A stretch of DNA of 64,000 nucleotides from Candidatus Uhrbacteria bacterium (GCA_963822405.1 CAWGHH010000001.1:87296-151295), one strand, 5' to 3'; numbered from the stretch's first letter, positions 76-64,000 are shown. Numbers and translations are program-made. The notes: generated by a model from the sequence alone, not told the origin.

Positions 76-181
76 ACCTAATAACTCACCTCTAGGCTAC
101 GCCCGAGGGTGGTTGGATTGGAGTAAAATAAAACAGCGGCCAGGGAAAGGTTCCCAGACCGCCGTAGCAACGACGTTAGCC

Positions 182-21898: not shown

Positions 21899-22393
21899 AT
21901 GCGCTTCCTCCGAAACTATATTCTCGCCTTTGGCCTTCTTGCTACTTTTTGGTTGCCTTCCGTGGCTCACGCAGCAACGTCGAGTGTTGAATCAGGCTAT
22001 GCGGATATTCTTTCCCAGGGTTTAATCTTTGCAAATATCTGTTCAGCTCCAGCGCCGGCGGCTTGTGCTTGTAGAGATTCTGGAAATTGTCAGCTTTCTG
22101 ACATGCTCCAAATTTTCGTTAACATTTCTATTGGTATTTTAGCTATTAGTGGTTCAGTTGCCTTGCTCATGTTCTTTTACGGCGGATTTACTTGGACAAC
22201 TTCCATGGGCAATCCTAAAAAGATTGAAACCGGTAAGGAAATTATCGTTCGAGCCGTAATTGGTCTCGCCATTATCTTTGGCGCCTACGCTTTTGTGAAT
22301 TTCTTAGTCGCTGCTATTTCTGGCAAGGCTCCTCAAGCCACCATTGAGCAAACTATTGGCGGCGGTTCAGAAAACGTTATTCAAACACAGTAA
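21899..22393 (+). CDS. T4SS-pilin-like (TrbC/VirB2-type) small secreted membrane protein; Cys-rich variable region
   Basis: Signal peptide, then the conserved core NISIGILAISGSVALLMFFYGGFTWTTSMGNPKK...AVIGLAIIFGAY. Confidence 0.55.
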   Translation: MRFLRNYILAFGLLATFWLPSVAHAATSSVESGYADILSQGLIFANICSAPAPAACACRDSGNCQLSDMLQIFVNISIGILAISGSVALLMFFYGGFTWTTSMGNPKKIETGKEIIVRAVIGLAIIFGAYAFVNFLVAAISGKAPQATIEQTIGGGSENVIQTQ

Positions 22394-22395
22394 TT

Positions 22396-22959
22396 ATGCG
22401 GATTAAATCGCTGATTGTTCTTGCTGTAGCCTGCTGCATTTTCCTTGTGCCGAGAGCGAGTGTATTTGCAAGTTGTCGATCAGTGCTCGATGCTTGTTTA
22501 GCTGCGCCAGGCTGTAAGGATTCTGGTTCCTCAGACACACTTACGATCGTAGCCGAAGCTGATTGTCGAGCTGCGTGCGCCACAACGTTTGATGGTTGTC
22601 ACGATACCGTTGCTCCGCCACCCCCAGCCAGTCCGTCCCAAAACCAAAGCAGTTCTGGTGGCACGGCCTCGACTAGCAAAGTGGTGTCAGTGATTAACCC
22701 TTTAGGTATTACCGATCCAACTGTCATCATCGGAAATTTGATTCGCGCCATTTTGTCGATCGTCGGCTCACTGACTCTTCTTATGTTTATTTATGGTGGG
22801 GTGCTTTGGATAACTTCGATGGGGAATGACAAAACCGTTCATAAAGCTAAATCGGTTTTAACTTGGACAGTTATTGGTTTAGCCGTTATTGCTGGTGCGT
22901 ATACGCTAACGAACGCCGTGATTACTAGCTTGACCAGCGGTTCGGCACTTGGTATTTAA
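22396..22959 (+). CDS. T4SS-pilin-like protein (paralog 2), with Cys-rich and Ser-rich variable regions
   Basis: Core IGNLIRAILSIVGSLTLLMFIYGGVLWITSMGNDKT..KAK. Confidence 0.55.
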   Translation: MRIKSLIVLAVACCIFLVPRASVFASCRSVLDACLAAPGCKDSGSSDTLTIVAEADCRAACATTFDGCHDTVAPPPPASPSQNQSSSGGTASTSKVVSVINPLGITDPTVIIGNLIRAILSIVGSLTLLMFIYGGVLWITSMGNDKTVHKAKSVLTWTVIGLAVIAGAYTLTNAVITSLTSGSALGI

Positions 22960-22990
22960 TTATCCTGTCGGCTTGCCCTTAACCAGAAGT

Positions 22991-23467
22991 ATGCGAATTA
23001 AACCGTTTTTGATCGTTGCTACTTTCCTCCTAGCCTTCTTCATTCCGCAGGCTCACGTACTTGCAGATTGTGTGTCAGATTGTAATAGCAACATGGTTTG
23101 GACGGCGTCTAAGCGAGCGGAATGTGTCGCGTCGTGCTCGCAAGGTAACTTTGTGCAAACCGATCCTAATGGGGCATCGACAGATACAACTATCAGACTC
23201 GACAATCCATTAGTTTCTGGAGACCCGCGAGTAATTGCTGGAAATCTTATTCGAGCGATGCTTTCTATTACGGGCTCGATCTCGTTACTTATGTTTGTTT
23301 ACGGTGGCGTATTGTGGATCACGGCGATGGGAAATGAGAAAACAATCGATAAAGGAAAGAAGGTGTTAATTTGGGCGGTGATTGGACTTGCAGTAATTGC
23401 TGGGGCATATACGCTGACAAATGCGGTCATCTACGGTTTGACCACAGGATCCGTGTCTGGTCTTTAA
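22991..23467 (+). CDS. T4SS-pilin-like protein (paralog 3)
   Basis: Core AGNLIRAMLSITGSISLLMFVYGGVLWITAMGNEKT. Confidence 0.55.
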   Translation: MRIKPFLIVATFLLAFFIPQAHVLADCVSDCNSNMVWTASKRAECVASCSQGNFVQTDPNGASTDTTIRLDNPLVSGDPRVIAGNLIRAMLSITGSISLLMFVYGGVLWITAMGNEKTIDKGKKVLIWAVIGLAVIAGAYTLTNAVIYGLTTGSVSGL

Positions 23468-23521
23468 GCTGGTGTATAATATCTTGGAGATTTATTAGTT
23501 TTAATTTCTTTAACCATTCCT

Positions 23522-23932
23522 ATGGTGAAATCACTTATCAGATTCGGGATGAGCGCAGTCTTGGGCCTGGCACTCGCACTTCCTTTTGTGCGTTTGGTTC
23601 CAGCTTTTGCTCCAGTTGCTCACGCTCAGCCACTTGGTTCTGAGGACATCATCAGCTCAGACTTTGGCAACGCCACTGGTCTTGGCCAGGGTGATTTGAA
23701 GCAAACCATTGGAAACCTTATCCGTGTAGCGCTTGGTTTCCTAGGAGTAGTAGCAGTGGTTATTGTTCTTTACGGAGGTTTCAAGTGGATGGTATCCGGT
23801 GGTAGCGATGAGAAAGTGGGCGAAGCTAAGAAACTCATCATCAGCGGTATCATTGGTCTCGCAATTATTCTCTCTGCATACGCCATCACCACGTTCGTCA
23901 TTTCGAACCTGATGACGGCCGCGAACGGTTAG
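23522..23932 (+). CDS. T4SS-pilin-like protein (paralog 4)
   Basis: Core IGNLIRVALGFLGVVAVVIVLYGGFKWMVSGGSDEK. Confidence 0.55.
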   Translation: MVKSLIRFGMSAVLGLALALPFVRLVPAFAPVAHAQPLGSEDIISSDFGNATGLGQGDLKQTIGNLIRVALGFLGVVAVVIVLYGGFKWMVSGGSDEKVGEAKKLIISGIIGLAIILSAYAITTFVISNLMTAANG

Positions 23933-23980
23933 TTGTCTCATGTCTCCGTCCGCATCTTCCACGGAAGGTGCGGGCACGAT

Positions 23981-24370
23981 ATGCGAAAACTGGCAGCCGC
24001 TGGGCTAATGTCACTATCACTCTTGTTGCCGCTAAGTGCCGGCGCCGCTTTTAATGCGGGAGATTCTGGTTTGAATAAGACTGCTGAAGGTGCTTTTGGC
24101 GCTGGCTACACGGGCTCAAGAGGTAATATCGGAACTTTCGTTGGAACGTATATCATTAAGCCAGTTCTCGGCCTGCTTGGTTTAGTTTTCTTGATGCTCA
24201 TGGTTTACGCTGGCGGCATGTGGATGACGGCCATGGGAAATGAAAAACGCGTAGCAAAAGCAAAAGAGATTATGATTGCTGCGGTGATTGGGTCAGTAAT
24301 CATTGTAGCCGCATACACACTAACTAACGCGTTGTTCTCGGCTTTGAGTACAGGAACTCCAACCGGCTAG
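23981..24370 (+). CDS. T4SS-pilin-like protein (paralog 5)
   Basis: Core LGLLGLVFLMLMVYAGGMWMTAMGNEKRVAKAK. Confidence 0.55.
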   Translation: MRKLAAAGLMSLSLLLPLSAGAAFNAGDSGLNKTAEGAFGAGYTGSRGNIGTFVGTYIIKPVLGLLGLVFLMLMVYAGGMWMTAMGNEKRVAKAKEIMIAAVIGSVIIVAAYTLTNALFSALSTGTPTG

Positions 24371-24381
24371 TTAGGATTTTT

Positions 24382-24708
24382 ATGTCTACACTTTTGGCGA
24401 TTAACACTACCACAGGATTATCCGACGCCGGTCAAGGCGCCGGTTATTCTTTAACTCAAACTCCAGCAGAACTTTTGGGTTTTGGCATCCAACTAGTTAT
24501 TGGTCTTTTGGGGGTCGTTTTTTTGATCCTCGTTCTCTACGCTGGATTCACTTGGATGACTTCAATGGGGAACGAAAAAACAGTGGGAAAAGCTAAGGAT
24601 ATATTAGTTCGAGCCACTGTTGGATTAGTGATTATGATTTCGGCTTATGCTATTTCTTCCTATGTCATTGGCGCATTAGATGTGGCAGTGAACGGACCAG
24701 GTGCATAG
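24382..24708 (+). CDS. T4SS-pilin-like protein (paralog 6), apparently without an N-terminal signal peptide
   Basis: Core LVIGLLGVVFLILVLYAGFTWMTSMGNEKTVGKAK. A stop codon lies immediately upstream of the ATG. Confidence 0.5.
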   Translation: MSTLLAINTTTGLSDAGQGAGYSLTQTPAELLGFGIQLVIGLLGVVFLILVLYAGFTWMTSMGNEKTVGKAKDILVRATVGLVIMISAYAISSYVIGALDVAVNGPGA

Positions 24709-24778
24709 ACTGTCCACATCATTTAGTTAAGCTAGGAATTAATAGGTGTATAATTTCTGTAACATTCATTAATTTATT

Positions 24779-25174
24779 ATGAACAAGCTAAAGAAACTTC
24801 TCATTGGTGCGGCGTTGGTAGTAGTGCCATTCTCAACTGCAGTCATGAACGTTAGCGCTCAGACTAGCAAGATTGGCGATAGCTTGGGACAAGTCGGGAA
24901 TGCGGCTCAATTGGGTGGTGGCGGTGAAGACCAGTTGGTTAATACGGTTGGTAGCTTGATTACTACATTCCTTGGAATTTTAGGTATTGTTTTCTTGGTT
25001 CTTGTTCTCTACGCCGGATTCACTTGGATGACAGCTATGGGTGAAGAGAAGAAAATTGCATCTGCTAAGAATATTCTCATCTCTGCTGTTGTTGGTCTTG
25101 TGGTTATCATGTCGGCTTATGCGATTAGTAGTTTCGTGATCGCTCAATTGCAACATGCCACAACAGGAGTCTAG
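24779..25174 (+). CDS. T4SS-pilin-like protein (paralog 7)
   Basis: Core FLGILGIVFLVLVLYAGFTWMTAMGEEKKIASAK. Confidence 0.55.
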   Translation: MNKLKKLLIGAALVVVPFSTAVMNVSAQTSKIGDSLGQVGNAAQLGGGGEDQLVNTVGSLITTFLGILGIVFLVLVLYAGFTWMTAMGEEKKIASAKNILISAVVGLVVIMSAYAISSFVIAQLQHATTGV

Positions 25175-25277: not shown

Positions 25278-25359
25278 ATGACCTCGATTCCCCTTTTAGG
25301 GGCTCGCCCGTAGGGCGGTCTACGCCCGAGGGGACAAAGGGGTCGAGCGCGGGACGGTG

Positions 25360-39255: not shown

Positions 39256-39330
<75 letters not shown>

Positions 39331-39383: not shown

Positions 39384-39824
39384 TTAGCGGTCTGCGAGTA
39401 GGCGAAGACGCGAGTTTGATCGTTCGAGCGTGCTGATACGAACTTCGTGGTTTAGGTGGCTCGATTCTAGGCGTTCGACAATTCCATGAGTTTTTATGGC
39501 GTAAACAGCCACTTCATCAAGGCACTCATCTATGCGGTCGATTTTTATCTCTAGTTGATCAACTTTTGTTTCTAGCTGGTCGAATCTCTGATCCATGATG
39601 TCGAATCTACAGTCCATTTTGTCAAATCTCTGATCCGTCACATCAAATCTCTGATCCATCACATCAAATCTCTGATCCATTACATCAAATCGCTGATCCA
39701 TCCGATCGAATTTGTGATCAACCAGATTGAATTTTTGATCAACAAGATCAAATCTCGAATTCATGTCTGACCGAAGATCGGTGATGCTTTTGAGAATTTC
39801 TTGATTAAGGGAAATTTCGTTCAT
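39384..39824 (-). CDS. Repetitive coiled-coil protein with about 8 heptad repeats (M/T)DQRFD(V/K/I)
   Basis: The ORF contains 21-bp tandem DNA repeats. Confidence 0.5.
   Translation of the reverse strand: MNEISLNQEILKSITDLRSDMNSRFDLVDQKFNLVDHKFDRMDQRFDVMDQRFDVMDQRFDVTDQRFDKMDCRFDIMDQRFDQLETKVDQLEIKIDRIDECLDEVAVYAIKTHGIVERLESSHLNHEVRISTLERSNSRLRLLADR
39598..39765. repeat. About 8 tandem copies of a 21-bp unit (CACATCAAATCTCTGATCCAT-like) within the CDS
   Basis: Read in sequence. Confidence 0.7.
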
Positions 39825-40204: not shown

Positions 40205-42394
40205 TTAGGAGATTAAAGGTATCGTTATGCCTTTTGCTTTGGCGAACCAATAGGCTAGGGCACCAAGGCTAGTTGTCAGTAATCCTCCTCCTACCCACGG
40301 AACCGGTTTGGTCGGTGAATTAATCGAGGTTGGGGTCGACCCATGCGTCGACCCTGCTGGTGGTAGGGTGGCTCCCCCTCCTTTCGAAGGAGGGGGTAGG
40401 GGGGAGGTGATTGGTCCGCTTTCGGTTCCCATCGACCCATTCAGGATGGTCAACCCCGTCTGGTCGAGGATCGTCACCGTCCACGCTCCCTTCACTAGTC
40501 GAACAATTCCGGTTACGGCTACGCGGTCATCAAAGGCGAGGTTAGAGAAGTCTACGGCTGTTGTTTTAGACGAGTTCGCAACGATCAGTTCTCCATTGTC
40601 GAGGCCGATTGTTAGACTCTTACCGGTAAGGTCAACAACCGAACCGCTGAGGCTCATGAGAAGACCGTGCGTTGCATCGTCGAGTGTTTCAAGCGCATCT
40701 GGCGCAATAGAGTCATCGCCGACAATTTGGATGTTTGATCGCTTGGATATTTTTAGTCGAGTGTACCCATCTTTCGGATCAACCACGCCTGTTACTCGAA
40801 TGCGCGTCATGGGCGAAAGTTTCGGCCAATCAGCTTTATTGAAGTAGATTTCTAGTCCGTCTATGTACGCCAGTTGTTTTCCAAACATGCCGGGGAGTCC
40901 AACCAGGACTCCCTCCACGGTAACCGTAGTCTTTGCGGCATAGTTCGTAATCTCCGATGCATCGATAACTGGAATTGCGGGTTCTGATTGGTTCGCTCCT
41001 CCCTCTCCACGAAGTGGAGAGGGCCGGGGTGAGGTCAGGGGTGGCTCGATCTGCGTACTCGCAGCTACTACGCCCGTTGCCACTTGAGGTTCGCGCTCCA
41101 CCCGAATAGGGGATGCGGTTCCGGTAGAATTGTCAGTCCCTGTATTTGATCCCGAATTGGTTTCAGGATTGCTGATAACGGTCGTAGTGTCGTTTGCTGT
41201 CTCATATGTGATGTTGGGGTCGACCCATGCGTCGACCCTTGAATTAGTACCAAGTGGCGTTGGATTAGTTTCTGCCCATGTGTCAGTGAATCTTGAGAAC
41301 GACCTTCCTTTTTTCGGCGCACTCGTTTTGTCATACGAGATTGCGTCGATCGTCGCTCCGGTTCCATCGAACAAGAAGATGCTGTCGCCATCATTATTCA
41401 GTTTGCTTTTTGGATTTTGCAGGACAAAGAATGAATGAGCTTCGAGTGTCTGTGTCGGCAACATTGTTTTACTTGTCGTTGCATCTTTTTCCGTCCAGCC
41501 TGTGAGGTCGATCGGTCCATCTGTCGTATTAAGGATTTCGATCCACTCTGTTCCGTCGACGGGATCCGACACAAACTCGTTGATGACTACGGAGTGTGCG
41601 GGGTACGAGTGGAACATGGGTGAGTCGGTGGCCGCAGGTGCGGTCGAAGGTATCGTTAGCGACGCTTTGCATTCAGGGGCGGCCGCCTCAACCGTCACGA
41701 TCCGTACCGGACAAATCAAGCACGGATCCGCAATCGGTACAGTCTTCTCAACCAGATCCACAACTAATGGCGGTTCTGGCTCGGGCGTGATCAGGAGTGG
41801 CTCGCTTCCCCCTTCCAGGGGGACAAAGGGGGTCGTGATCGGGGTGGTCAGGAATGGTTCGCTTACTCCCCCTCCTTCCGAAGGAGGCTCGCCCGTAGGG
41901 CTGGTAGTCAGGGCTACGCCCGAGGGGGGTAGGGGGGTGGTCGAAAACGCCGCCACCGGCGCCTCAAACTCAGGGGTGGTCGGGTAATGGTCAACTTCCG
42001 TCCCATCACTCGCAATCAGTGTGAGGTCCAGGGCAGAGTTCGACAGCGACACCGCAGTCGTCACCACATCAGGTTTTATGGTCAGCGTCGTTTTCGGGTC
42101 GCCGAGGTCGTAGTTGCTGATGAGGAACGTTCCGTTCGCTGGAATAGTCGAGTTTGTCGGGAGGGGGAGTGGTTTGCCCACTCCCGCCCCGCCTAGAATC
42201 GACCAGCCCGTAAGATCAATCAATGTGTCGCTTAGGTTTTTTAGTTCTAGCCATTCGTCCGCGGTGCTCGCTTCGCTGCCTGCCCAGTTGATTTGGCCAA
42301 AGGTGGCTTTGGGTGCTGCATCCGCACGGGCGGATAAAGGAGACAGAGCGGGCATGAGGGCGATGATTCCCAAGAGTCCATATGCTAGTTTCAT
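40205..42394 (-). CDS. Large secreted protein with two lamin-tail (LTD) domains and a C-terminal TM anchor, carrying at least 7 in-frame hairpin-repeat insertions
   Basis: LTD-like segments (INWAGSEASTADEWLELKNLSDTLIDLTGWSI; VVINEFVSDPVDGTEWIEILNTTDGPIDLTGWT). The repeats encode PPPSKGGG, GSTHGSTP, SPLRGEGG, RVDAWVDP, PLEGGSEP and PPSEGGG. Confidence 0.5.
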   Translation of the reverse strand: MKLAYGLLGIIALMPALSPLSARADAAPKATFGQINWAGSEASTADEWLELKNLSDTLIDLTGWSILGGAGVGKPLPLPTNSTIPANGTFLISNYDLGDPKTTLTIKPDVVTTAVSLSNSALDLTLIASDGTEVDHYPTTPEFEAPVAAFSTTPLPPSGVALTTSPTGEPPSEGGGVSEPFLTTPITTPFVPLEGGSEPLLITPEPEPPLVVDLVEKTVPIADPCLICPVRIVTVEAAAPECKASLTIPSTAPAATDSPMFHSYPAHSVVINEFVSDPVDGTEWIEILNTTDGPIDLTGWTEKDATTSKTMLPTQTLEAHSFFVLQNPKSKLNNDGDSIFLFDGTGATIDAISYDKTSAPKKGRSFSRFTDTWAETNPTPLGTNSRVDAWVDPNITYETANDTTTVISNPETNSGSNTGTDNSTGTASPIRVEREPQVATGVVAASTQIEPPLTSPRPSPLRGEGGANQSEPAIPVIDASEITNYAAKTTVTVEGVLVGLPGMFGKQLAYIDGLEIYFNKADWPKLSPMTRIRVTGVVDPKDGYTRLKISKRSNIQIVGDDSIAPDALETLDDATHGLLMSLSGSVVDLTGKSLTIGLDNGELIVANSSKTTAVDFSNLAFDDRVAVTGIVRLVKGAWTVTILDQTGLTILNGSMGTESGPITSPLPPPSKGGGATLPPAGSTHGSTPTSINSPTKPVPWVGGGLLTTSLGALAYWFAKAKGITIPLIS
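40332..40354. repeat. Hairpin repeat, copy 4 (inside the LTD ORF; encodes GSTHGST)
   Basis: Same 23-mer preceded by GAGGTT. Confidence 0.8.
41217..41238. repeat. Hairpin repeat, copy 5 (inside the LTD ORF in another frame; encodes RVDAWVDP)
   Basis: Same motif preceded by GATGTT. Confidence 0.8.
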
Positions 42395-44050: not shown

Positions 44051-45058
44051 ATGACTGATATGGTTTTTTCCCTCGCCGCACTTGTTCTCGCCCATCAATT
44101 GTCTGGTCGAATTCTTTTAGCGGTCGAAGACTCGGGAAAGGCTTGGTATGTGAATCCTGTGAATGAACAGCGTTATTCTCTCGGTTCGCCAGATGACGCT
44201 TGGTTTCTTATGCGTTCATTAGCGCTCGGCATCTCAAATGTCGATTTAGCTCAGCCCATTCCATCACGTCTTGCTGGTCGAATTCTGCTTGCAGTCGAGG
44301 ATCATGGCAAAGCTTATTACGTTAATTCTCTCACGTTGGAGTTGCATTATCTCGGTCGCCCCGCTGACGCTTTTAAAGTTATGTCCGAGCTAGGTCTTGG
44401 TATTACGGATGCTAACCTTGCAAAAGTGCCATTGGCGAGTGGCTCGCTTCCCCCTTCCAGGGGGACACAGGGGGTTCAGGGTGGTGCGTTGGTCCAGTTC
44501 ACCTCCCAAGCTCCCCTCGGCGAATGGTCAGACCCTCGCCAGCAAGAAGGTTGTGAGGAGGCATCCGCATTTATGGCGGTAAAGTGGGCGAAGGGTGAAT
44601 CATTCACTCCGGAGGAAGCGAAAAATGCGATCATCGGGATGAGTGATTGGGAGGATAAAACATTTTTGACTTATTTCGACACCTCGTCGGATGACACGGC
44701 GGATCGACTGGTGCGTCAATATTTGCAGTATGACAACTTCCAGGTACTAAAAAATATTACTACAAATGATATTAACGATCAGCTCGTGCGCGGGAATATT
44801 GTGATCGTGCCGGTAGACGGGCAGAAGCTTCAGAACCCAAATTATTCGAATGGCGGTCCGGTTCGTCACATGATTGTGGTGATCGGGTTTGATGCTCAGA
44901 CGAACGAGTTCATTACAAATGACCCAGGCACAAGAAACGGGGCAGGATATAGATACTCGACGTCGACCCTGGCCAACGCTCTTATGGATTATCCGTCAGG
45001 AAATCATTCAGCGCTCTCAGATTTACCCACGGCCATGATTGTGGTTTCAAAGAAATAA
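44051..45058 (+). CDS. Protein with two N-terminal ~45-aa repeats and a C-terminal C39-like (papain-fold) peptidase-like domain (tentative)
   Basis: Repeats GRILLAVED.GKA.YVN...; a Cys-containing segment EGCEEASAFMAVKW. Contains an in-frame G/C hairpin encoding GSLPPSRGTQG. Confidence 0.3.
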   Translation: MTDMVFSLAALVLAHQLSGRILLAVEDSGKAWYVNPVNEQRYSLGSPDDAWFLMRSLALGISNVDLAQPIPSRLAGRILLAVEDHGKAYYVNSLTLELHYLGRPADAFKVMSELGLGITDANLAKVPLASGSLPPSRGTQGVQGGALVQFTSQAPLGEWSDPRQQEGCEEASAFMAVKWAKGESFTPEEAKNAIIGMSDWEDKTFLTYFDTSSDDTADRLVRQYLQYDNFQVLKNITTNDINDQLVRGNIVIVPVDGQKLQNPNYSNGGPVRHMIVVIGFDAQTNEFITNDPGTRNGAGYRYSTSTLANALMDYPSGNHSALSDLPTAMIVVSKK

Positions 45059-48779: not shown

Positions 48780-51845
<3,066 letters not shown>

Positions 51846-51907
51846 CTAAGCATCAGTAAGTGCAGATCTCTATACAAAATAATACGAAGTTAAACAATGA
51901 AAGATCG

Positions 51908-52027
51908 CAGTGTCTTGGTGGCACTTTCTGCAGGGTCACACCCGTTCCCATCCCGAACACGGCCGTTAAGCCTGCATGAGCCGATGGTAGTTAAGTGTAG
52001 CGAGAGTAGGTGGCCGCCAGGACACTG
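51908..52027 (+). rRNA. rrf: 5S ribosomal RNA
   Basis: Helix I CAGTGTCTTGGTGGC/GCCGCCAGGACACTG; internal CCGAACACGGCCGTTAAG and CGAGAGTAGG. Confidence 0.8.
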
Positions 52028-52046: not shown

Positions 52047-52072
52047 CCCGATTCGAAAGAGTCGGTTTTTTT
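52047..52072 (+). terminator. Hairpin CCGATTC-GAAA-GAGTCGG plus T7 (module copy 1), followed by a TATACT -10-like element
   Basis: Read in sequence; repeated at 53222, 54679 and 55435 with T5, G11 and G8 runs. Confidence 0.6.
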
Positions 52073-54678: not shown

Positions 54679-54703
54679 CGACTCGAAGAGTCGGGGGGGG
54701 GGG
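54679..54703 (+). promoter_or_regulatory. Module copy 3: hairpin CGACTC-GAA-GAGTCG followed by a G11 homopolymer and an AT-rich promoter-like sequence
   Basis: G-run at 54693-54703, read in sequence. Confidence 0.45.
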
Positions 54704-54736
54704 TAATATAGGAGAAAAGTTACTAACATATTTAAT

Positions 54737-55375
54737 ATGGGCGTTGAGAAAGAAGATAAAGATCCCAATGCTAGGCATTGGATAGCATCGAGAAAGCCTG
54801 AGCCGACAATTGAAAGTACGCAAGAATATGCTAAAGAGAAACCTGTAATTGAAAGCAGGCTGGGTAGTCTCTATAAACCAACAGCTGCTGAGGAAACTGA
54901 GCGTAAATTACATCCTGAATTACATGAGGAGGGTGGTTTAGACGCAGTTAAAAAGAGGATCGCGAATTTGAAGAAAGGTCACGGTAAATTGATAATTCCT
55001 CCCGGGTACATTACTGACAGAGAGATGGAATCAAATAGAGTTTTAGGCGAGCGTTATCAAGAATCATCAAATGAAATTAAAAGATTAGAAGGAATAATAC
55101 GGGATTCCGAATTGAACGATGAGAATGAAGCAAATAGTTTGCGTGTGGCTGAAGTAGAGAGAATCAAGGAGTCCGCGGATCTTTCAGCAAGAAATAAAAG
55201 GGATAGCGCAATGTTAGACGAACGAAAACAAAAAGCTGAGAAAGAGCATTGGGCCGAATATCAAAGACGACTTTACGAGGCGCAGATAAAACTTCAAACG
55301 GCGTGGTTTTGGCAACGCGCTGGTCTTCAGAAGACAATTGATTTCTATGAGGCAGAATTTAAGAACAGGAAATAA
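54737..55375 (+). CDS. Highly charged coiled-coil protein, paralog A (conserved AWFWQR C-terminal motif)
   Basis: 212-aa ORF; a paralog of 55493-56218. Confidence 0.45.
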   Translation: MGVEKEDKDPNARHWIASRKPEPTIESTQEYAKEKPVIESRLGSLYKPTAAEETERKLHPELHEEGGLDAVKKRIANLKKGHGKLIIPPGYITDREMESNRVLGERYQESSNEIKRLEGIIRDSELNDENEANSLRVAEVERIKESADLSARNKRDSAMLDERKQKAEKEHWAEYQRRLYEAQIKLQTAWFWQRAGLQKTIDFYEAEFKNRK

Positions 55376-55434: not shown

Positions 55435-55459
55435 CCCGATTCGAAAGAGTCGGGGGGGG
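55435..55459 (+). promoter_or_regulatory. Module copy 4: hairpin CCGATTCGAAAGAGTCGG followed by a G8 homopolymer
   Basis: Read in sequence. Confidence 0.45.
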
Positions 55460-55492
55460 TAAAATTAGAACAAAGTCACGAACATAATTAAT

Positions 55493-56218
55493 ATGGCCGT
55501 TGAGAAAGAAGGAGGAGACCCGAAGGCTAAAGATTGGAAGGCGCCGGAAAAAGCGCCGAAAAAATACGATGAGATTAAACGCATTGAAGACTCTATAGCG
55601 TCCATGAGGAAGGGTTACGGCGGTAAGAAGGAAGACGATCCAAAAATATCTGAATTTGAAAAGATGCTCGTTAGGGCAAAAGAAAGAAAGGCGCAAGATG
55701 ATGCTTGGCTTGAGCAGTCCCCCGAACTTCGGGCTGTGGGTGGTTTAAAAGCAGCTAACGAAAAACTTACGAAGTTAAGGGAAGAGATGAATAAAATGTC
55801 AAAAATACTTAGTATATCTCCTCATCCTGATTTTATTGAAGCGGGCGTGTACGAGCGTAGTGATGGTCAGAAAAGAGCATCGGAACGATACGATATAATG
55901 AATACTGAAGTACGAAGGTTGGAAGGGATAATTAAGGGTCAAGAATCGTATACGTTTGATGAAGAGAAAAAGAAGAAAACGTTAGAGGTGCAACAGGAGG
56001 AAGATAGAGGGCGTGAACTTAAAAAGGAATGGAAGGAGCTGCAAAAAAGAAGGGATGATGCTAAGGATAAACTTGATCAGGCTTGGTTTTGGCAACGCCG
56101 CGCAATACAAGAAGAGATCGAGTCTATAGATACAGAATTAGAAAATTTGAGAAAACGAATAGAGAAGGAGGATAAAATAAGGAAAGAAAGAGTAGACAAA
56201 GCAATTTACGGTAAGTAG
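55493..56218 (+). CDS. Highly charged coiled-coil protein, paralog B
   Basis: Shares the N-terminus M(G/A)VEKE..DP.A..W, a central ...RRLEGII..., and the C-terminal AWFWQR. Confidence 0.45.
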   Translation: MAVEKEGGDPKAKDWKAPEKAPKKYDEIKRIEDSIASMRKGYGGKKEDDPKISEFEKMLVRAKERKAQDDAWLEQSPELRAVGGLKAANEKLTKLREEMNKMSKILSISPHPDFIEAGVYERSDGQKRASERYDIMNTEVRRLEGIIKGQESYTFDEEKKKKTLEVQQEEDRGRELKKEWKELQKRRDDAKDKLDQAWFWQRRAIQEEIESIDTELENLRKRIEKEDKIRKERVDKAIYGK

Positions 56219-58373: not shown

Positions 58374-59125
58374 GCACCATAAGACCCGCGGAGGACGTGC
58401 TTGAGAAGCTCGGGCTATCGCCCAAAGAAACGCGCGTGTACATCACCCTTTTGAAGGAGGGGCCGTCCAGCGTTCGCCAAATGGCAGCGGCTACGGGCAT
58501 CAATCGGGGGACGGTTTATGATTCGCTCAAGAACCTGCAAGTCATGGGACTTGCTCGTTTTTATAATAAGGAGACAAAACAGTATTTTGTAGCTGCACCG
58601 CCGGTGAAACTTGAGGAACTCGCCCAAGAGAAGATGGATGATTTGAAGCGCGCAAACGAGAAATTGTCGCACGTAATTGCCGAGCTCGACAGCGTATATG
58701 ACGGGGGAGGAACGGATCCGGTTGCGCGGATGTACGAGGGTCCAGAAGGAATTAAAGTGATTTTGCAGGATGTTTTGGCGAGTATGGAGGCAGCCAAGGA
58801 GAAAGAATATTACGTGTATTCGTCGAGTGCCGTGCGCGAGGCTGGTTTGTACTCGGCATTTTCCACATACACCGCAGAACGACTCGACGCGCGGATTCGG
58901 GTGAAGAACATTTCGCTTGGCAAGGGCGGATCTACGGCTGGACTAGACGAACGTAAATGGATTCCCGCTACGGAAGGCTCGCCAACATATATTTTGATTT
59001 ACGCCGGAAAAGTGGCGAACATTTTCTTAGACAAAAAGGGCGAGCTGGTTGGTTTGATCATTGAAAATAAGGGCATTTATCAAACTCAGAAGATTTTGTT
59101 CGCGTCACTTTGGGAGAGGTTGTAG
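58370..59125 (+). CDS. TrmB-family HTH transcriptional regulator (second copy)
   Basis: LGLSPKETRVYITLLKEGPSSVRQMAAATGINRGTVYDSLKNL. Confidence 0.6.
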   Translation: MSTIRPAEDVLEKLGLSPKETRVYITLLKEGPSSVRQMAAATGINRGTVYDSLKNLQVMGLARFYNKETKQYFVAAPPVKLEELAQEKMDDLKRANEKLSHVIAELDSVYDGGGTDPVARMYEGPEGIKVILQDVLASMEAAKEKEYYVYSSSAVREAGLYSAFSTYTAERLDARIRVKNISLGKGGSTAGLDERKWIPATEGSPTYILIYAGKVANIFLDKKGELVGLIIENKGIYQTQKILFASLWERL

Positions 59126-59781
59126 AATGGGCGAGTATGATCGACGTTGCCACGGTGCAATCATTTTTCATTGATAGCCTTAAATCAGCGCGTGAAGACG
59201 TTGAATTATTTGCGTTAGATTTCTTCAAACTAGTTAGGGCTTTGGGGGTGTGGGCGGTGCCGTTCGTATTGTCGATTATTGCTATCGCTGCGCTTCCTGC
59301 GGTGTTTGCGACGCACATTGGCAAGCTGACCGATGCAATTATCGGTGCTCGAGGTGTGGGAACAATGACGATCGATGTGACGCGCGCGATTCGAATTCTT
59401 ACTGGTGCAACGATCGTTGGTTTTCTTGCTGAAATGTTTTTGAGCAGGTTTGAAGGGAAGGCGGGGGTCATGGCGAGTACGGCGTACGGCCTTGGTGTTC
59501 TCGTTGTTCTGGCGATAATGCTCGGGAATCTAGGGTGGTACGGTGTCGCCCTTTGGCCGATTGTTTTGCTTGTCACTCGAACTATTTTGAAGAAAATTCC
59601 GTATCTGCAGTTTGTTTTCGTGATTCCTGTTGTTCTGTTATTTTTGTCATGTGCGACGAATGTGATTCAGTACGCGACGATCCGTGCGATCACTGTCGGT
59701 GCGGCTATGTCGACGGTAGCGGCGGCGGGGATGTATGCGGTGGTGGTGGCGGTGGTGATGTTGAAACGTGATTCAGCCTGA
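59110..59781 (+). CDS. Integral membrane protein, function unknown
   Basis: About 6 TM helices. Confidence 0.4.
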   Translation: MGEVVEWASMIDVATVQSFFIDSLKSAREDVELFALDFFKLVRALGVWAVPFVLSIIAIAALPAVFATHIGKLTDAIIGARGVGTMTIDVTRAIRILTGATIVGFLAEMFLSRFEGKAGVMASTAYGLGVLVVLAIMLGNLGWYGVALWPIVLLVTRTILKKIPYLQFVFVIPVVLLFLSCATNVIQYATIRAITVGAAMSTVAAAGMYAVVVAVVMLKRDSA

Positions 59782-59874
59782 ACCACCGAGGCCCTTCGGG
59801 GCAGACCAACCACCTCCCCCTACCCCCTCCTTAGAAAGGAGGGGAGGCGAACCATCCTGACCATTAAATACCGT

Positions 59875-60282
59875 ATGCCCAACCATCTCATCGCCGACAT
59901 CCCCGTGAAGGCTCTCATTCGTAAAGACGATAAAATTTTGTTGATCCAGCAGGCGGATGGCAAGGAAGACTGGTGCTTACCGGGTGGTCGTCTGAATAAT
60001 GGTGAACAGCCGAGAGAAGGTTTGCGTCGCGAGATATTGGAAGAAATCGGCGCCGAGATTGAGATCGGTAGGCTCGTCGACTGTACAGTTTTCACGAGTA
60101 AATCCGGCATGAACCATTTTGTGGTAGTTTTCGAGGCGACTCTCGTCGGTAATAGCCAACCAAAGCCGGACGGTGTAGAAATCAAAGATGTTAAATGGGT
60201 TACGCTCGAGGAGGCGTTGAAGATGGAGTTGAGAAGTGAATATCGGGTAATTCTCGAAGGACTCGCCGCCAGGATCAAATAA
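59875..60282 (+). CDS. NUDIX hydrolase
   Basis: Nudix box GGRLNNGEQPREGLRREILEEIG. Confidence 0.7.
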   Translation: MPNHLIADIPVKALIRKDDKILLIQQADGKEDWCLPGGRLNNGEQPREGLRREILEEIGAEIEIGRLVDCTVFTSKSGMNHFVVVFEATLVGNSQPKPDGVEIKDVKWVTLEEALKMELRSEYRVILEGLAARIK

Positions 60283-60322: not shown

Positions 60323-61564
60323 ATGAAAATAATCGCCGATCTACATGTTCACTCCCGTTTTTCGCGTGCATGTTCGCAGGATTTAACACTCGAAAATAAC
60401 GCGTTGTGGTGCGAGAAGAAGGGGGTGAATGTTTTGGGGACGGGGGATTTTACGCATCCACTTTGGTTCAAAGAAATAGAAGAGAAACTCGTCGAAGCCG
60501 AGTCAGGACTCTACAAGTTGAAGAGTGGAGAGTTTTCGAAAATGCGGTTCATGATGACGACCGAAGTCTCGCAGATCTATAAGAGGGGAGGAAAAGTACG
60601 ACGCGTGCACAATTTAATTTTTGCACCAAACATTGAGTGCGTGAAAAAAATAAATGCGTGGCTCGACGAACATAAATTTAATCGGCGGAATGATGGTCGG
60701 CCAATTTTAGGAATTGATTCGGAAGATTTATATCGCGAACTAAAAAACCTCGACGATAAAATTATTCTTGTACCGGCGCACGCGTGGACACCGTGGTATT
60801 CGGTATTTGGTTCGAAGAGCGGGTTTGATTCGCTCGAAGAATGTTTTGGTGAGATGACGAAAGAAATTTTTGCGATCGAGACGGGATTGTCGAGCGACCC
60901 CGCGATGAATCGAACACTTAGTGTACTCGACGACATTTCTTTGATCTCAAACTCTGATGCGCACTCGCCTAAAAACTTTGGAAGAGAAGCGAATGTCTTT
61001 GAAATTGATGAAAAGAAATTATCTTACGATGAAATTATTCGCACGATTCGTGAGCGAGATATTGCACACTTTTTGTATACGATCGAGTTTTATCCGGGGG
61101 AGGGAAAGTACTATGCGGATGGGCATGCACCCTGTGGGCTGACCTTTGAGACTAAGGAGACTTTGAGACTGGGAGGGAGATGCCCGAAATGCGGAGGACC
61201 AATAACGGTGGGGGTTTTGTCGAGAGTTGAGGAGTTGGGGGATCGCCCCACTTTCGACCCCCTCTATCCCCCTAGAAGGGGGAAGGAGCAATCCATTCCA
61301 TTCAAATCCATTGTGCCACTGCCGGAAATACTTGCGCAGTGTTTGGGGGTGTCGAGTGTGTCGTCGAAGAAGGTGATGACGTTGTACGAGGAGATGATAA
61401 AAACATTAGGCAGCGAGTTTAATATTTTATTAGAAGTTTCTGTTTTAGAAATTCGTTCGCAGTTTGGTAACACTGTCGCTGAAGCGATTGCACGAGTGCG
61501 CGCGGGAAAAGTTTCCGTTACTCCTGGTTATGACGGAATATTTGGTGTAGTAAAAATATTTTAA
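60323..61564 (+). CDS. PHP-domain protein of the endonuclease Q / TIGR00375-like family, with a C-terminal CxxC zinc ribbon
   Basis: N-terminus ADLHVHSRFSRACS...LGTGDFTHPLW; CPKCGG. Contains an in-frame hairpin CCCCCTAGAAGGGGG encoding PPRRG. Confidence 0.5.
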   Translation: MKIIADLHVHSRFSRACSQDLTLENNALWCEKKGVNVLGTGDFTHPLWFKEIEEKLVEAESGLYKLKSGEFSKMRFMMTTEVSQIYKRGGKVRRVHNLIFAPNIECVKKINAWLDEHKFNRRNDGRPILGIDSEDLYRELKNLDDKIILVPAHAWTPWYSVFGSKSGFDSLEECFGEMTKEIFAIETGLSSDPAMNRTLSVLDDISLISNSDAHSPKNFGREANVFEIDEKKLSYDEIIRTIRERDIAHFLYTIEFYPGEGKYYADGHAPCGLTFETKETLRLGGRCPKCGGPITVGVLSRVEELGDRPTFDPLYPPRRGKEQSIPFKSIVPLPEILAQCLGVSSVSSKKVMTLYEEMIKTLGSEFNILLEVSVLEIRSQFGNTVAEAIARVRAGKVSVTPGYDGIFGVVKIF

Positions 61565-61839: not shown

Positions 61840-61881
61840 TTTCTCAGACGAGCATGTCCTTGGAGGAGATGCTGGTCAAAC

Positions 61882-61909
61882 AAAAAATTCCCGTGAGGGA
61901 ATTTTTTTA
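61882..61909 (+). terminator. Hairpin AATTCCC-GTGA-GGGAATT plus T7
   Basis: Read in sequence. Confidence 0.6.
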
Positions 61910-61911
61910 TT

Positions 61912-62030
61912 GTCCTCATCTGATCACTCAAGGGAGAGAGTCCTTAAGTGATCGGATGAGGGGACGACGGCTGTGCAAGCGCATCGTCCACGAGTCACTT
62001 TGCTGTTCTGGCACAGAAAGTGAGAAATAT
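61912..62030. repeat. Structured repeat R1 (three consecutive stem-loops; lacks the 45-nt prefix)
   Basis: About 90% identical to 63890-63999. Confidence 0.7.
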
Positions 62031-62333: not shown

Positions 62334-62335
62334 CC

Positions 62336-62440
62336 TCCAATCGAGCAACGCGATCGCGCATGAGCTGCGCAGTGATCGGTCCTCATCTGATCACTCAAGG
62401 GAGAGAGTCCTTAAGTGATCGGATAAGGAGAGAGCTCAAC
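62336..62440. repeat. Structured repeat R2 (45-nt prefix containing CGCGATCGCG, then the first stem-loop, then diverged)
   Basis: Prefix identical to 63847-63890. Confidence 0.7.
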
Positions 62441-63838: not shown

Positions 63839-63846
63839 GGCGGCCT

Positions 63847-64000
63847 CCAATCGAGCAACGCGATCGCGCATGAGCTGCGCAGTGATCGGTCCTCATCTGA
63901 TCACTCCAACGAGAGAGTGTTGAAGTGATCGGATGAAGAGGACGACGGCTGTGCAAGCGCATCGTCCACGAGTCACTTTGCTTTTCAGGCGAAAGAAAGT
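63847..64000. repeat. Structured repeat R3 (prefix plus three stem-loops), running to the window end
   Basis: Matches R2 (prefix) and R1 (stem-loops). Confidence 0.7.

Follow-up and report, generated by a model that had tools for sequence, protein, structure and literature searches.

Intrastrand triplex motifs of the BoxC/PIT/TM class in a patescibacterial genome: in-frame copies inside genes and, across bacteria, adjacency to DUF559 nuclease genes

We analyzed a group of short G/C-rich repeats in a 64,000-nt stretch of DNA from a Candidatus Uhrbacteria bacterium; this whole stretch is called the window below. By its gene content the window looks like part of a patescibacterial (candidate phyla radiation, CPR) genome. 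It carries a T4SS-pilin gene set, a lamin-tail-domain (LTD) surface protein and a 23S-5S rRNA pair without a neighboring 16S gene, and the source records of the nearest homologues of its proteins name Patescibacteria or Uhrbacteria. The repeats are located in or next to the following genes.

40205..42394, minus strand: LTD gene, encoding a 729-aa lamin-tail-domain protein; hosts four triplex motifs, one nested palindrome and two hairpins of another family.
44051-45058, plus strand: C39-like peptidase gene; hosts triplex motif B2.
60323-61564, plus strand: endonuclease-Q-family gene; hosts triplex motif B3.
59875-60282: NUDIX gene, the right-hand neighbor of the intergenic motif A2; an open reading frame (ORF) at 59110-59781 is on the other side of the motif.
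24779-25174: T4SS-pilin gene (PF18895), upstream of the motif at 25.3 kb.

The 729-aa LTD protein matches the Pfam LTD family (1.7e-25) in two stretches, and has a signal-peptide-like N-terminus and a C-terminal membrane anchor.

An initial annotation of this DNA, made from the sequence alone, described the repeats as simple hairpins. All of the hairpins that it listed are present, although the one placed at about 40985 is located at 41001-41023, about 16 nt away. The repeated unit is not a simple hairpin, however. It is composed of a 5' pyrimidine arm, a 3-nt loop, a complementary purine arm, a linker of 2-3 nt and a third, G-rich arm, and is an intrastrand triplex motif of the BoxC/PIT/TM kind. 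The third arm repeats the purine arm in mirror image, with either A or T opposite A. The sequence GGGGGTAGGGGGG, noted earlier as a frequent follower of the hairpins, is the linker plus the third arm. It is found twice, at 40392 and 41925, and once as its reverse complement, at about 59816. The copies in the window are as follows.

40374..40408, plus strand: triplex motif A1, CCCCCTCCTT-TCG-AAGGAGGGGG-TA-GGGGGGAGGT; the hairpin part is 40374-40396. The LTD gene strand reads SPLPPPSKGGG, residues about 663-674.
41001..41035, plus strand: triplex motif D, CCCTCTCCAC-GAA-GTGGAGAGGG-CC-GGGGTGAGGT; the hairpin part is 41001-41023. It encodes SPRPSPLRGEGG and is, of the window copies, the nearest to the E. 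coli TMECO/BoxC consensus.
41807..41833, plus strand: triplex motif B1, TCCCCCT-TCC-AGGGGGA-CAA-AGGGGGT; the hairpin part is 41807-41823. It encodes TPFVPLEGG and has a conserved 5' flank, GAGTGGCTCGCT, from 41795.
41843..41861, plus strand: 5' extension GGTCAGGAATGGTTCGCT, which precedes the pyrimidine arm and contributes SEPFLTTP to the LTD protein; 59846-59863 holds its reverse complement.
41868..41941, plus strand: triplex motif A3, interrupted, CCCCCTCCTT-CCG-AAGGAGG, an insert, then GGGGGG-TA-GGGGGGTGGT; hairpin CCTCCTT-CCG-AAGGAGG at 41871-41887.
44449..44475, plus strand: triplex motif B2, in the C39-like peptidase gene, in the linker ahead of the peptidase domain; hairpin TCCCCCT-TCC-AGGGGGA at 44449-44465. 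It encodes LPPSRGTQG.
59812..59844, minus strand: triplex motif A2, intergenic, between the ORF 59110-59781 and the NUDIX gene; the plus strand reads ACCTCCCCC-TA-CCCCCTCCTT-AGA-AAGGAGGGG, with the hairpin CCCCTCCTT-AGA-AAGGAGGGG at 59824-59844. Stops are present in three of the six frames.
61257..61283, minus strand: triplex motif B3, in the endonuclease-Q-family gene; hairpin TCCCCCT-AGA-AGGGGGA at 61267-61283. It encodes PLYPPRRG, residues about 311-321.
25290..25343, plus strand: interrupted Type-B-like motif, CCCCT-TTT-AGGGG, an insert beginning CTCG and ending CGAG, then GGGACAAAGGGGT; downstream of the T4SS-pilin gene.

The copies were typed by a short-word self-comparison of the window (blastn-short). 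Type A reads CCCCCTCCTT-NNN-AAGGAGGGGG-TA-GGGGGGAGGT and is represented by the copies at 40374 (plus), 59812-59844 (minus; 93% identity over 42 nt to the copy at 40374) and 41868-41941 (interrupted). In the interrupted copy a nested element splits the purine arm, with a net insert of 39 nt or 13 codons. The segments 41866-41887 and 41925-41941 align with the uninterrupted copy at 40372-40408. Type B reads TCCCCCT-NNN-AGGGGGA-NNN-AGGGGGT and has copies at 41807, 44449 (97% identical over 39 nt to the first) and 61257-61283 (minus; 90% identical). Type D has a single copy, at 41001, with one A in its pyrimidine arm. The extension GGTCAGGAATGGTTCGCT is lineage-specific. It is also found in locus L120 and, inverted, on either side of a DUF559 gene in L002, a syntenic relative of the window.

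A strict three-arm search found five motifs in the window and none in each of 100 first-order Markov simulations. The Type D copy and the two interrupted copies bring the total to eight, a density of about 8 per 64 kb. The G-rich strand is on the plus strand in six copies and on the minus strand in two. Six of the eight are inside ORFs with Pfam or homologue support, in frame. Stems measure 7-10 bp with first loops of 3 nt, followed by the 2-3 nt linker and 7-9 consecutive allowed triplets. ViennaRNA models of the hairpin parts only gave -7.6 to -12 kcal/mol. A relaxed search also returned a match inside a tRNA at 39287, which was discarded as a false positive.

The mirror relationship holds for every copy in the window, and it extends far beyond it. 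One genome per species was scanned for the exact Type A hairpin in 185,579 species, yielding at least 120 loci. The matches listed, to which the counts in this paragraph refer, come from Ignavibacteria, Kapaibacteria, Chthonomonadaceae, Bacteroidales, Zixibacteria, Binatia, Planctomycetota, Gammaproteobacteria, Deltaproteobacteria and several CPR lineages, and include two isolates, Sandaracinomonas limnophila and Larkinella soli. G5-6[A/T]GGT is present on exactly one side in 115 of 137 exact Type A hairpins from more than 100 genomes, and 108 of 118 linkers measure 2-3 nt. Hairpins that run from pyrimidine to purine number 217, those that run from purine to pyrimidine 2. In hairpins outside the search pattern, the mirrored third arm tracks its own purine arm in 59 of 77. 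Examples from these hairpins are AAGGGGGAGA with AGAGGGGGT and AGGGAGAAGGG with GGGGATGAGGGT; further arm and third-arm pairs are AAGGGGAGGG with GGGAGGGGT and AAGGAGAGGG with GGGGTGAGGT. A permutation test was performed with 54 distinct purine arms from many phyla, and the tested side was picked by G content alone to avoid circularity. An arm's own flank mirrors 74% of it, compared to 47 +/- 2.5% for permuted flanks (z = 11).

Covariation of the three arms is also observed between orthologous genes. At site 1 of the LTD gene, the window has CCCTCTCCAC / GTGGAGAGGG / GGGGTGAGGT and L002 has CCCCCTCCAC / GTGGAGGGGG / GGGGGGAGGC. One position differs in all three arms, which converts one T-A.T triplet to C-G.G in L002. 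At site 2, occupied by motif A1 in the window and also filled in the L001 and L002 orthologues, the arms CCCCCTCCTT / AAGGAGGGGG / GGGGGGAGGT are replaced in L001, another syntenic relative, by CCCCCTCTTT / AAAGAGGGGG / GGGGGAGT, a three-way compensatory change. At the C39 site the window and L001 agree in all 21 arm bases and differ in the second loop. The protein sequence flanking these sites is only 50-74% identical. Conservation of the arms against this background indicates that the design is either held by selection or restored as copies are refreshed by gene conversion, and the comparisons fit both. The joint change of all three arms at orthologous sites in coding sequence means that the triplex design is maintained, or continually refreshed, by something even inside genes.

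Taken as a G-quadruplex, the G-rich sequence would not account for the mirror rule with A to T allowed. The same is true of a Shine-Dalgarno reading.

The three-arm layout is known. The class II motif is composed of a 5' pyrimidine arm, a purine arm and a 3' reverse-Hoogsteen arm that form G.G-C, A.A-T and T.A-T triplets (Holder 2015, PMC4666352). Such elements were named BoxC in E. coli (Bergler 1992), then PIT elements (Hoyne et al. 2000; Hoyne and Maher) and TM or TMECO (Holder 2015). The TMECO consensus is CCCTCNCCC-N3-6-GGGNGAGGG-N3-GGGNGAGGG, with 3610 copies in 262 proteobacterial genomes, and a single-stranded oligonucleotide of TMECO, the only variant with such proof, forms a stable triplex in vitro by circular dichroism and nuclear magnetic resonance (PMC4666352). 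Like these elements, the window motifs have the class II purine-motif layout with a first loop of 3-6 nt and a second of about 3 nt. They are G/C-rich, about 35-37 nt long, multi-copy and dispersed in both orientations, sometimes as inverted pairs, which are also on record for TMECO (PMC4666352). Their arms are complementary, their third arms are triplet-capable, and their dispersed copies exceed chance in both orientations. Type D (CCCTCTCCAC..GTGGAGAGGG..GGGGTGAGGT) is near the TMECO consensus but departs from it in that its second loop is 2 nt and its 10-nt arm has AC at the end. The arm sequences of Types A and B are different. Because the strict consensus is not matched, we assign the window motifs to the broad class and not to TMECO.

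The window motifs are members of this known class and differ from its published representatives in several respects. All 23 TMECO copies of E. coli MG1655 are intergenic (PMC4666352), whereas genes contain six of the eight window copies in frame, where they would be translated. The density of the window copies compares to 23 per 4.6 Mb in MG1655. The host is a CPR genome, unlike those of the published BoxC/TMECO elements, and some of the window copies contain nested elements. Published work on TMECO reported no connection with any gene or mobile element, whereas DUF559 genes are consistently adjacent here. A literature search for the strings CCCCCTCCTT and AAGGAGGGGG returned nothing relevant.

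The same DNA is read differently by its host genes. One 39-nt sequence (97% identical) encodes TPFVPLEGGSEP in the LTD gene and, from the opposite strand, SLPPSRGTQGV in the C39-like gene, and Type B is read once more as PLYPPRRG in the endonuclease-Q-family gene. Intergenic copies are found at 59.8 kb and in L001 and L002. The use of both strands and different frames, the intergenic copies and the variable orthologues indicate a DNA-level repeat that is tolerated in linkers, and not a selected Pro/Gly peptide. The initial annotation had also favored a DNA repeat, and the peptides that it quoted are correct by translation. Selection could instead favor flexible Pro-Pro-x-x-Gly-Gly linkers in surface proteins, whose CCN and GGN codons are palindromic by accident. 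Every in-gene copy is indeed in a linker or loop, and Pro and Gly codons pair at the first two codon positions. This explanation is already contradicted, and we give it practically no weight. The wobble positions are complementary too. The third arm, which is outside the hairpin, co-varies with the purine arm. Opposite strands and different frames of the same DNA give unrelated peptides (VPLEGG and PPSRG), some copies are intergenic, and the same three-arm unit is present in non-coding DNA of many phyla.

The composition of the arms suggests how such repeats persist in genes. TAA, TAG and TGA are impossible in homopurine or homopyrimidine arms, and stops are confined to the loops and linkers. 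The in-gene copies have 0-1 closed frames, except B3 in the endonuclease-Q gene, which has 3, the same as the intergenic copy. Frame-preserving copies in tolerant linkers can therefore survive as translated segments. The arms are translated as Pro/Leu/Ser followed by Gly/Glu/Lys/Arg, which is the origin of the PP..GG peptides.

Protein alignments support turnover of the motif-encoded segments, which are absent or different in some orthologues of all three proteins. In the LTD alignment (alignment A1), the motifs are placed in inter-domain linkers, and distant orthologues are gapped at the motif-encoded segments. Relatives at 46-61% identity have motifs at the SPLRGEGG site and at the C-terminal PPPSKGGG site. 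The orthologue P0003 has PLPPPSEGGGEI where the window holds a hairpin of the other family, and P0004 and P0007 have that other family at other places. The alignment further suggests that the C-terminal part of LTD domain 1 in the window has been replaced by the cluster at 41.8-41.95 kb. In the C39-like proteins (alignment A3), the linker before the peptidase domain contains Type B in the window, P0121 and P0126, a CCTCCCCCTT-type motif in P0123, a PPPSQGGG segment in P0128, and no motif in several other orthologues; P0131 has a motif in another linker. In the endonuclease-Q family (alignment A2), one loop is about 9 residues long in most orthologues, which have no motif there, and 15 residues long in the window, including Type B. 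In an orthologue that is 84% identical (L135), this hypervariable loop holds a canonical Type A motif. An AlphaFold model of the endonuclease-Q-family protein has a modest mean pLDDT of 66, and in it residues 306-332, which cover the motif segment, are coil with pLDDT below 50. The picture that the initial annotation gave of the LTD protein, as a mosaic of domains and repeat-derived linkers, is sustained, and its count of at least seven insertions is fair, made up of four triplex motifs, one nested palindrome and two hairpins of the GGGGTCGAC family.

It had further suggested that the repeats belong to a system that remodels surface proteins. Nothing supports this as a dedicated role. The motif is present in the endonuclease-Q-family enzyme and, among Type A copies of other phyla, in frame in Pfam-supported genes for the LigA adenylation domain (L084, about 4948), a LigA linker (L046, about 2551), a MiaB-like radical-SAM protein (L108, about 6092), AcrB (L079, 3708) and a biotin carboxylase, in both its ATP-grasp domain and a linker (L102, 964 and 1546). 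In-frame motifs in conserved enzymes of other phyla indicate that residence in coding sequence is general, with no restriction to surface proteins. Orthologues of 50-60% identity share two of the LTD insertion sites, so these are old and do not reflect recent remodeling. Among the matches listed, about 35-50% of the cross-phylum copies are in long open frames, compared to 71-80% of random positions.

The copies at 59.8 kb and 25.3 kb had been described as intergenic and terminator-like. The first is intergenic and the second probably so, but neither resembles an intrinsic terminator: no T-run follows any window copy, on either strand. More broadly, the motifs could act as RNA-level signals, either terminators and attenuators or hairpins that mask Shine-Dalgarno-like AAGGAGG or GGAGGT behind anti-Shine-Dalgarno-like CCTCCTT. 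The purine arms do resemble Shine-Dalgarno sequences and the pyrimidine arms the 16S 3' end, GGGGGAGGT is located 4 nt ahead of a DUF559 start codon in L018, and the copy at 59.8 kb is between two same-strand genes. Besides lacking T-runs, however, the copies are found inside ORFs and point either way relative to transcription. The A to T rule fits the purine triplex motif, which does not form in RNA (work cited in PMC4666352), and earlier work found no promoter or terminator activity for E. coli PIT elements (PMC4666352). At the gathering threshold, Rfam reports only rRNA and tRNAs in the window and no family matching the motifs. We consider a primary role in RNA highly improbable.

Taken together, we are fairly confident that the repeats are class II purine-motif intrastrand triplex motifs that are gained, lost and homogenized as DNA, and we infer, with much less confidence, that they may spread via DUF559.

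The link to DUF559 emerged from the genes around the motifs. ORFs of about 120 pattern-selected loci were clustered all-against-all. No recurrent transposase was found in these clusters, which contain only common families (response regulators, kinases, ABC ATPases) and DUF559. All seven DUF559 ORFs in these loci have a motif within about 100 nt. In L002, inverted Type A units, each about 50 nt long, enclose the DUF559 gene. A second sample consisted of 11 metagenome loci, with G+C contents of 26-69%, picked only by similarity to the L002 DUF559 protein as the single query. Motifs, some with a nested hairpin, are found within about 250 nt of the gene in 10-11 of the 11, often on both sides, and the arm sequences track genome G+C. 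Linkage between DUF559 and the motifs is observed from either starting point. The DUF559 loci, which almost always have flanking motifs, are L002 (4560-5085), L018, L026, L027, L079, L089, L106, L124-L134 and, in E. coli, L123 (4200-4761).

In E. coli K-12, ycjD encodes a DUF559 protein and ends in a degenerate motif. A canonical BoxC, CCCCTCGCCCCTCTGGGGAGAGGGTTAGGGTGAGGGG, is about 170 nt downstream, and a truncated duplicate of the ycjD 3' end sits between the two. Of 5426 complete E. coli genomes, 3346 have the ycjD-BoxC module, and the remainder carry eefRABCD in its place between fabI and sapF. Comparison of MG1655 (fabI-ycjD-sapF, L123) with uropathogenic E. coli 536 (L137) showed that homology breaks about 40 nt from BoxC. 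To our knowledge, no activity has been shown for any DUF559 protein. Profile searches matched DUF559 to PDB entry 3hrl (7e-34) and to the mobile-intron homing endonuclease I-Bth0305I (3r3p, 1.6e-3). VSR, DUF559 and 3r3p were placed in one PD-(D/E)XK clade (Steczkiewicz 2012). A 2026 paper reported the same ycjD/eef alternation and inferred at least two independent losses of eef. In the limited collection of literature searched, no paper linking DUF559 or ycjD with BoxC or triplex motifs was found.

The neighboring genes also bear on whether the motifs are REP/REPIN elements or miniature inverted-repeat transposable elements (MITEs), moved by a conventional transposase elsewhere, such as a RAYT or IS200-IS605 Y1 enzyme, with DUF559 as cargo or a neighbor. 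Repetitive extragenic palindromic (REP) sequences and REPINs are short structured extragenic repeats of 20-40 nt, served by one REP-associated tyrosine transposase (RAYT) gene per genome. Y1 transposases of the IS200/IS605 kind recognize single-strand folds. The triplex motifs resemble REPs in size, in forming singlets and inverted doublets, in their putative single-strand fold and in being non-autonomous. Their 30-60 nt units are within the REP range. Inverted doublets with a short spacer and a period of about 70 nt are present in L005, L015, L044, L087 and L090, inverted motif pairs are 14-155 nt apart, and inverted pairs were also seen by Holder 2015. However, the conserved GT[AG]G that lies 5' of REP hairpins is missing from the flanks of the 137 copies among the matches listed, with GTAG arising by chance in some TA linkers. 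No RAYT gene was found in the about 120 fetched loci, nor does any transposase recur in them. DUF559 is the only protein family that recurs right beside the motifs, a PD-(D/E)XK nuclease in place of the HUH/Y1 enzyme at REPs, and REPs are extragenic. The inverted units of about 50 nt around the L002 gene recall MITE ends, but the orientation of flanking motifs varies between loci. A transposase of this kind seems an improbable source.

Composite arrays were observed in eight loci, from Bacteroidales, Porphyromonadaceae and OW818688.1 (L005, L015, L044, L045, L087, L090, L093, L098). They are laid out as third arm, hairpin, (47-nt spacer plus hairpin)n and third arm, with a period of 70 nt, and look like REPIN/MITE units or tandem amplifications of them. 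A CRISPR-like reading was ruled out, as 'spacers' of one locus, and those of different loci, are identical or homologous to one another.

We propose the following mechanism. On a single strand, the first two arms would pair as a Watson-Crick hairpin and the third arm would fold back into its major groove by G.G-C, A.A-T and T.A-T reverse-Hoogsteen triplets. The triplex would form transiently on single-stranded DNA in vivo. Motif-flanked DUF559 genes would act as master elements, and solitary motifs would be their non-autonomous derivatives. The DUF559 protein, of about 120 aa and related to Vsr and I-Bth0305I, would recognize or nick the folded motif or a G-run target, and repair or template switching would then copy the motif from another site into G-run or C-run targets. 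We hold this route, spread from DUF559 master elements by nicking and repair copying, to be possible, with a likelihood somewhat under one half. A more far-reaching and more tentative idea is that BoxC/PIT/TM elements are the non-autonomous copies of a new mobile element whose sole protein is a DUF559 nuclease that recognizes a single-strand-folded DNA triple helix. If so, recognition would be by structure and not by sequence, which would explain the free covariation of the arms across phyla and the entry into coding sequence, since arms that cannot hold stop codons allow copies to colonize it. E. coli YcjD would then be a testable model enzyme.

The motifs may also arise with no dedicated enzyme, through replication stalling, slippage, template switching and ectopic gene conversion in runs of G or C, with DUF559 as a host repair nuclease or as a passenger that builds up where DNA is unstable in this way. 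TMECO copies have raised sequence variability around them, and a connection of the motifs with polymerase arrest in vitro and with local instability of the genome has been drawn (Holder 2015, PMC4666352). The window copies are located at Pro/Gly codon tracts, that is at C-runs and G-runs, the Type C elements described below are nested exactly in G-runs, and the E. coli ycjD-BoxC module is an alternative allele to eefRABCD at one locus. However, one 20-base variant with its own third arm does not readily arise spontaneously in many phyla, and the motifs flanking nearly every sampled DUF559 gene are left unexplained. We regard this origin as rather unlikely, though it deserves serious consideration.

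Several observations weigh against the proposal that the motifs are mobile triplex elements spread by DUF559. Holder 2015 saw no triplex in double-stranded DNA or by in vivo dimethyl sulfate footprinting, and no association of TMECO with mobile elements or with gene classes (PMC4666352). The 64-kb window contains no DUF559 gene. The orientation of flanking motifs relative to DUF559 is not constant, a poor fit with simple terminal inverted repeats. The copying would fall to host repair, as PD-(D/E)XK nucleases cut DNA without joining it. Among the compared loci, no nucleotide-level pair of an empty and a filled site was found for the motifs, and no defined target-site duplication emerged. Variants at one and the same site may, in some cases, descend from an old insertion by divergence in place and not from repeated insertion. 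Finally, the cross-phylum counts come from a scan for one exact pattern, with at least 120 loci, and are not a measure of abundance across taxa.

Two other systems share traits with the motifs. Rickettsia palindromic elements (RPEs), reportedly described by Ogata et al. in 2000, are selfish elements of about 100-150 bp inserted in frame in protein genes. Like RPEs, the window motifs are palindromic, are translated in frame as a tolerated extra peptide, and have intergenic copies, and alignments A1-A3 contain orthologues without the insert. They differ in size, with units of 27-60 nt, and a relationship in sequence is not expected. RPEs are moreover not known outside Rickettsia and are not known to have a triplex design. 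Vsr-like EDxHD homing endonucleases, both free-standing and intron-borne (I-Bth0305I, 3r3p), resemble DUF559 in profile and as small selfish nuclease genes. However, they copy themselves into one cognate site, whereas dozens of short copies without a gene are scattered in the genomes here.

BoxC/PIT/TM elements have been known for three decades, since 1992, in hundreds of genomes, with no assigned function or spreading mechanism. The flanking of DUF559 genes, from E. coli ycjD to CPR bacteria, names a candidate enzyme, and the question can be tested in E. coli. In the ultra-small genomes of Patescibacteria, the motifs are mostly in frame and create linker variation in an LTD protein, a C39-like peptidase and a repair nuclease. 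Segments derived from them are at risk of being taken for native low-complexity linkers in annotation and structure prediction.

A separate palindrome, Type C, is nested in some of the motifs.

41888..41924, plus strand: Type C palindrome, CTCGCCCGTAGGGC...CTACGCCCGAG, which sits within the G-run of the motif A3 purine arm.
95..113, plus strand: partial Type C right half, GGCTACGCCCGAGGG followed by TGGTTGG.

The signature GCTCGCCCGTAGGG...CTACGCCCGAGGGG had been listed at three places as an element related to the hairpins. It is present at 41887-41927 and 25302-25333, with only its right half at 97-109, and it is this separate palindrome and not a relative. Type C is found in the G-run of a triplex purine arm at three places (window 41888, window 25303-25330 and the L001 LTD orthologue at about 10698), and a further copy is intergenic, at L001 12398. 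The extra Gs that flank it could be a 2-3 nt duplication, and Type C is apparently a small element of its own, with triplex motifs or G-runs as its targets. Similar small G/C hairpins are located in the second loop of motifs in L025, L128, L130, L133 and L134.

Another hairpin family, GGGGTCGAC-CCATGC-GTCGACCC(C), is about 22 nt long and is not a triplex motif. It has seven copies in a 10-kb part of the window (37414, 38302, 40171, 40333, 41217, 46271 and 46960) and is also found at L001 11502 and 14516 and at L002 11794. Two copies are in the LTD ORF, in two different frames (RVDAWVDP and GSTHGSTPT). GSIHGSTPT is found at another position in P0004 and P0007, the latter of which also has RVDTWIDP at the site occupied in the window.

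Further repeats and genes were observed elsewhere in the window. A 103-nt repeat, 61-74% identical between copies, is common to five paralogous small genes at 22140-25074, of which 24779-25174 was tested and identified as a T4SS pilin. The 23S and 5S rRNA genes are at 48792-52022, with no adjoining 16S gene, and the 23S match of 3032 nt to a 2925-position model may include a small insertion. The ORF at 39384-39824 (minus) contains at least seven tandem 21-nt units, encoding 7-residue repeats, at 39580-39726. Its product is a small coiled-coil-like protein, for which Pfam gives weak coiled-coil matches only. A hairpin with trailing Ts, CCCGATTCGAAAGAGTCGG, is terminator-like and recurs at 52047, 52617, 53222 and 55435. 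A 100-nt repeat beginning GGGGGGGGTAATATAGGAG is located at 54696-54795 and 55452-55551, upstream of two paralogous genes. A stretch of high G+C (0.59) contains repeats of 97 nt and 54 nt, with a long hairpin GATCACTCAAGGGAGAGAGTCCTTAAGTGATC, at 61867-62012, 62334-62430 and 63844-63990. Those at 62.3 kb and 63.8 kb are 92-94% identical, and a public 7.2-kb contig with the same sequence stops near 61.9 kb, as a repeat would cause.

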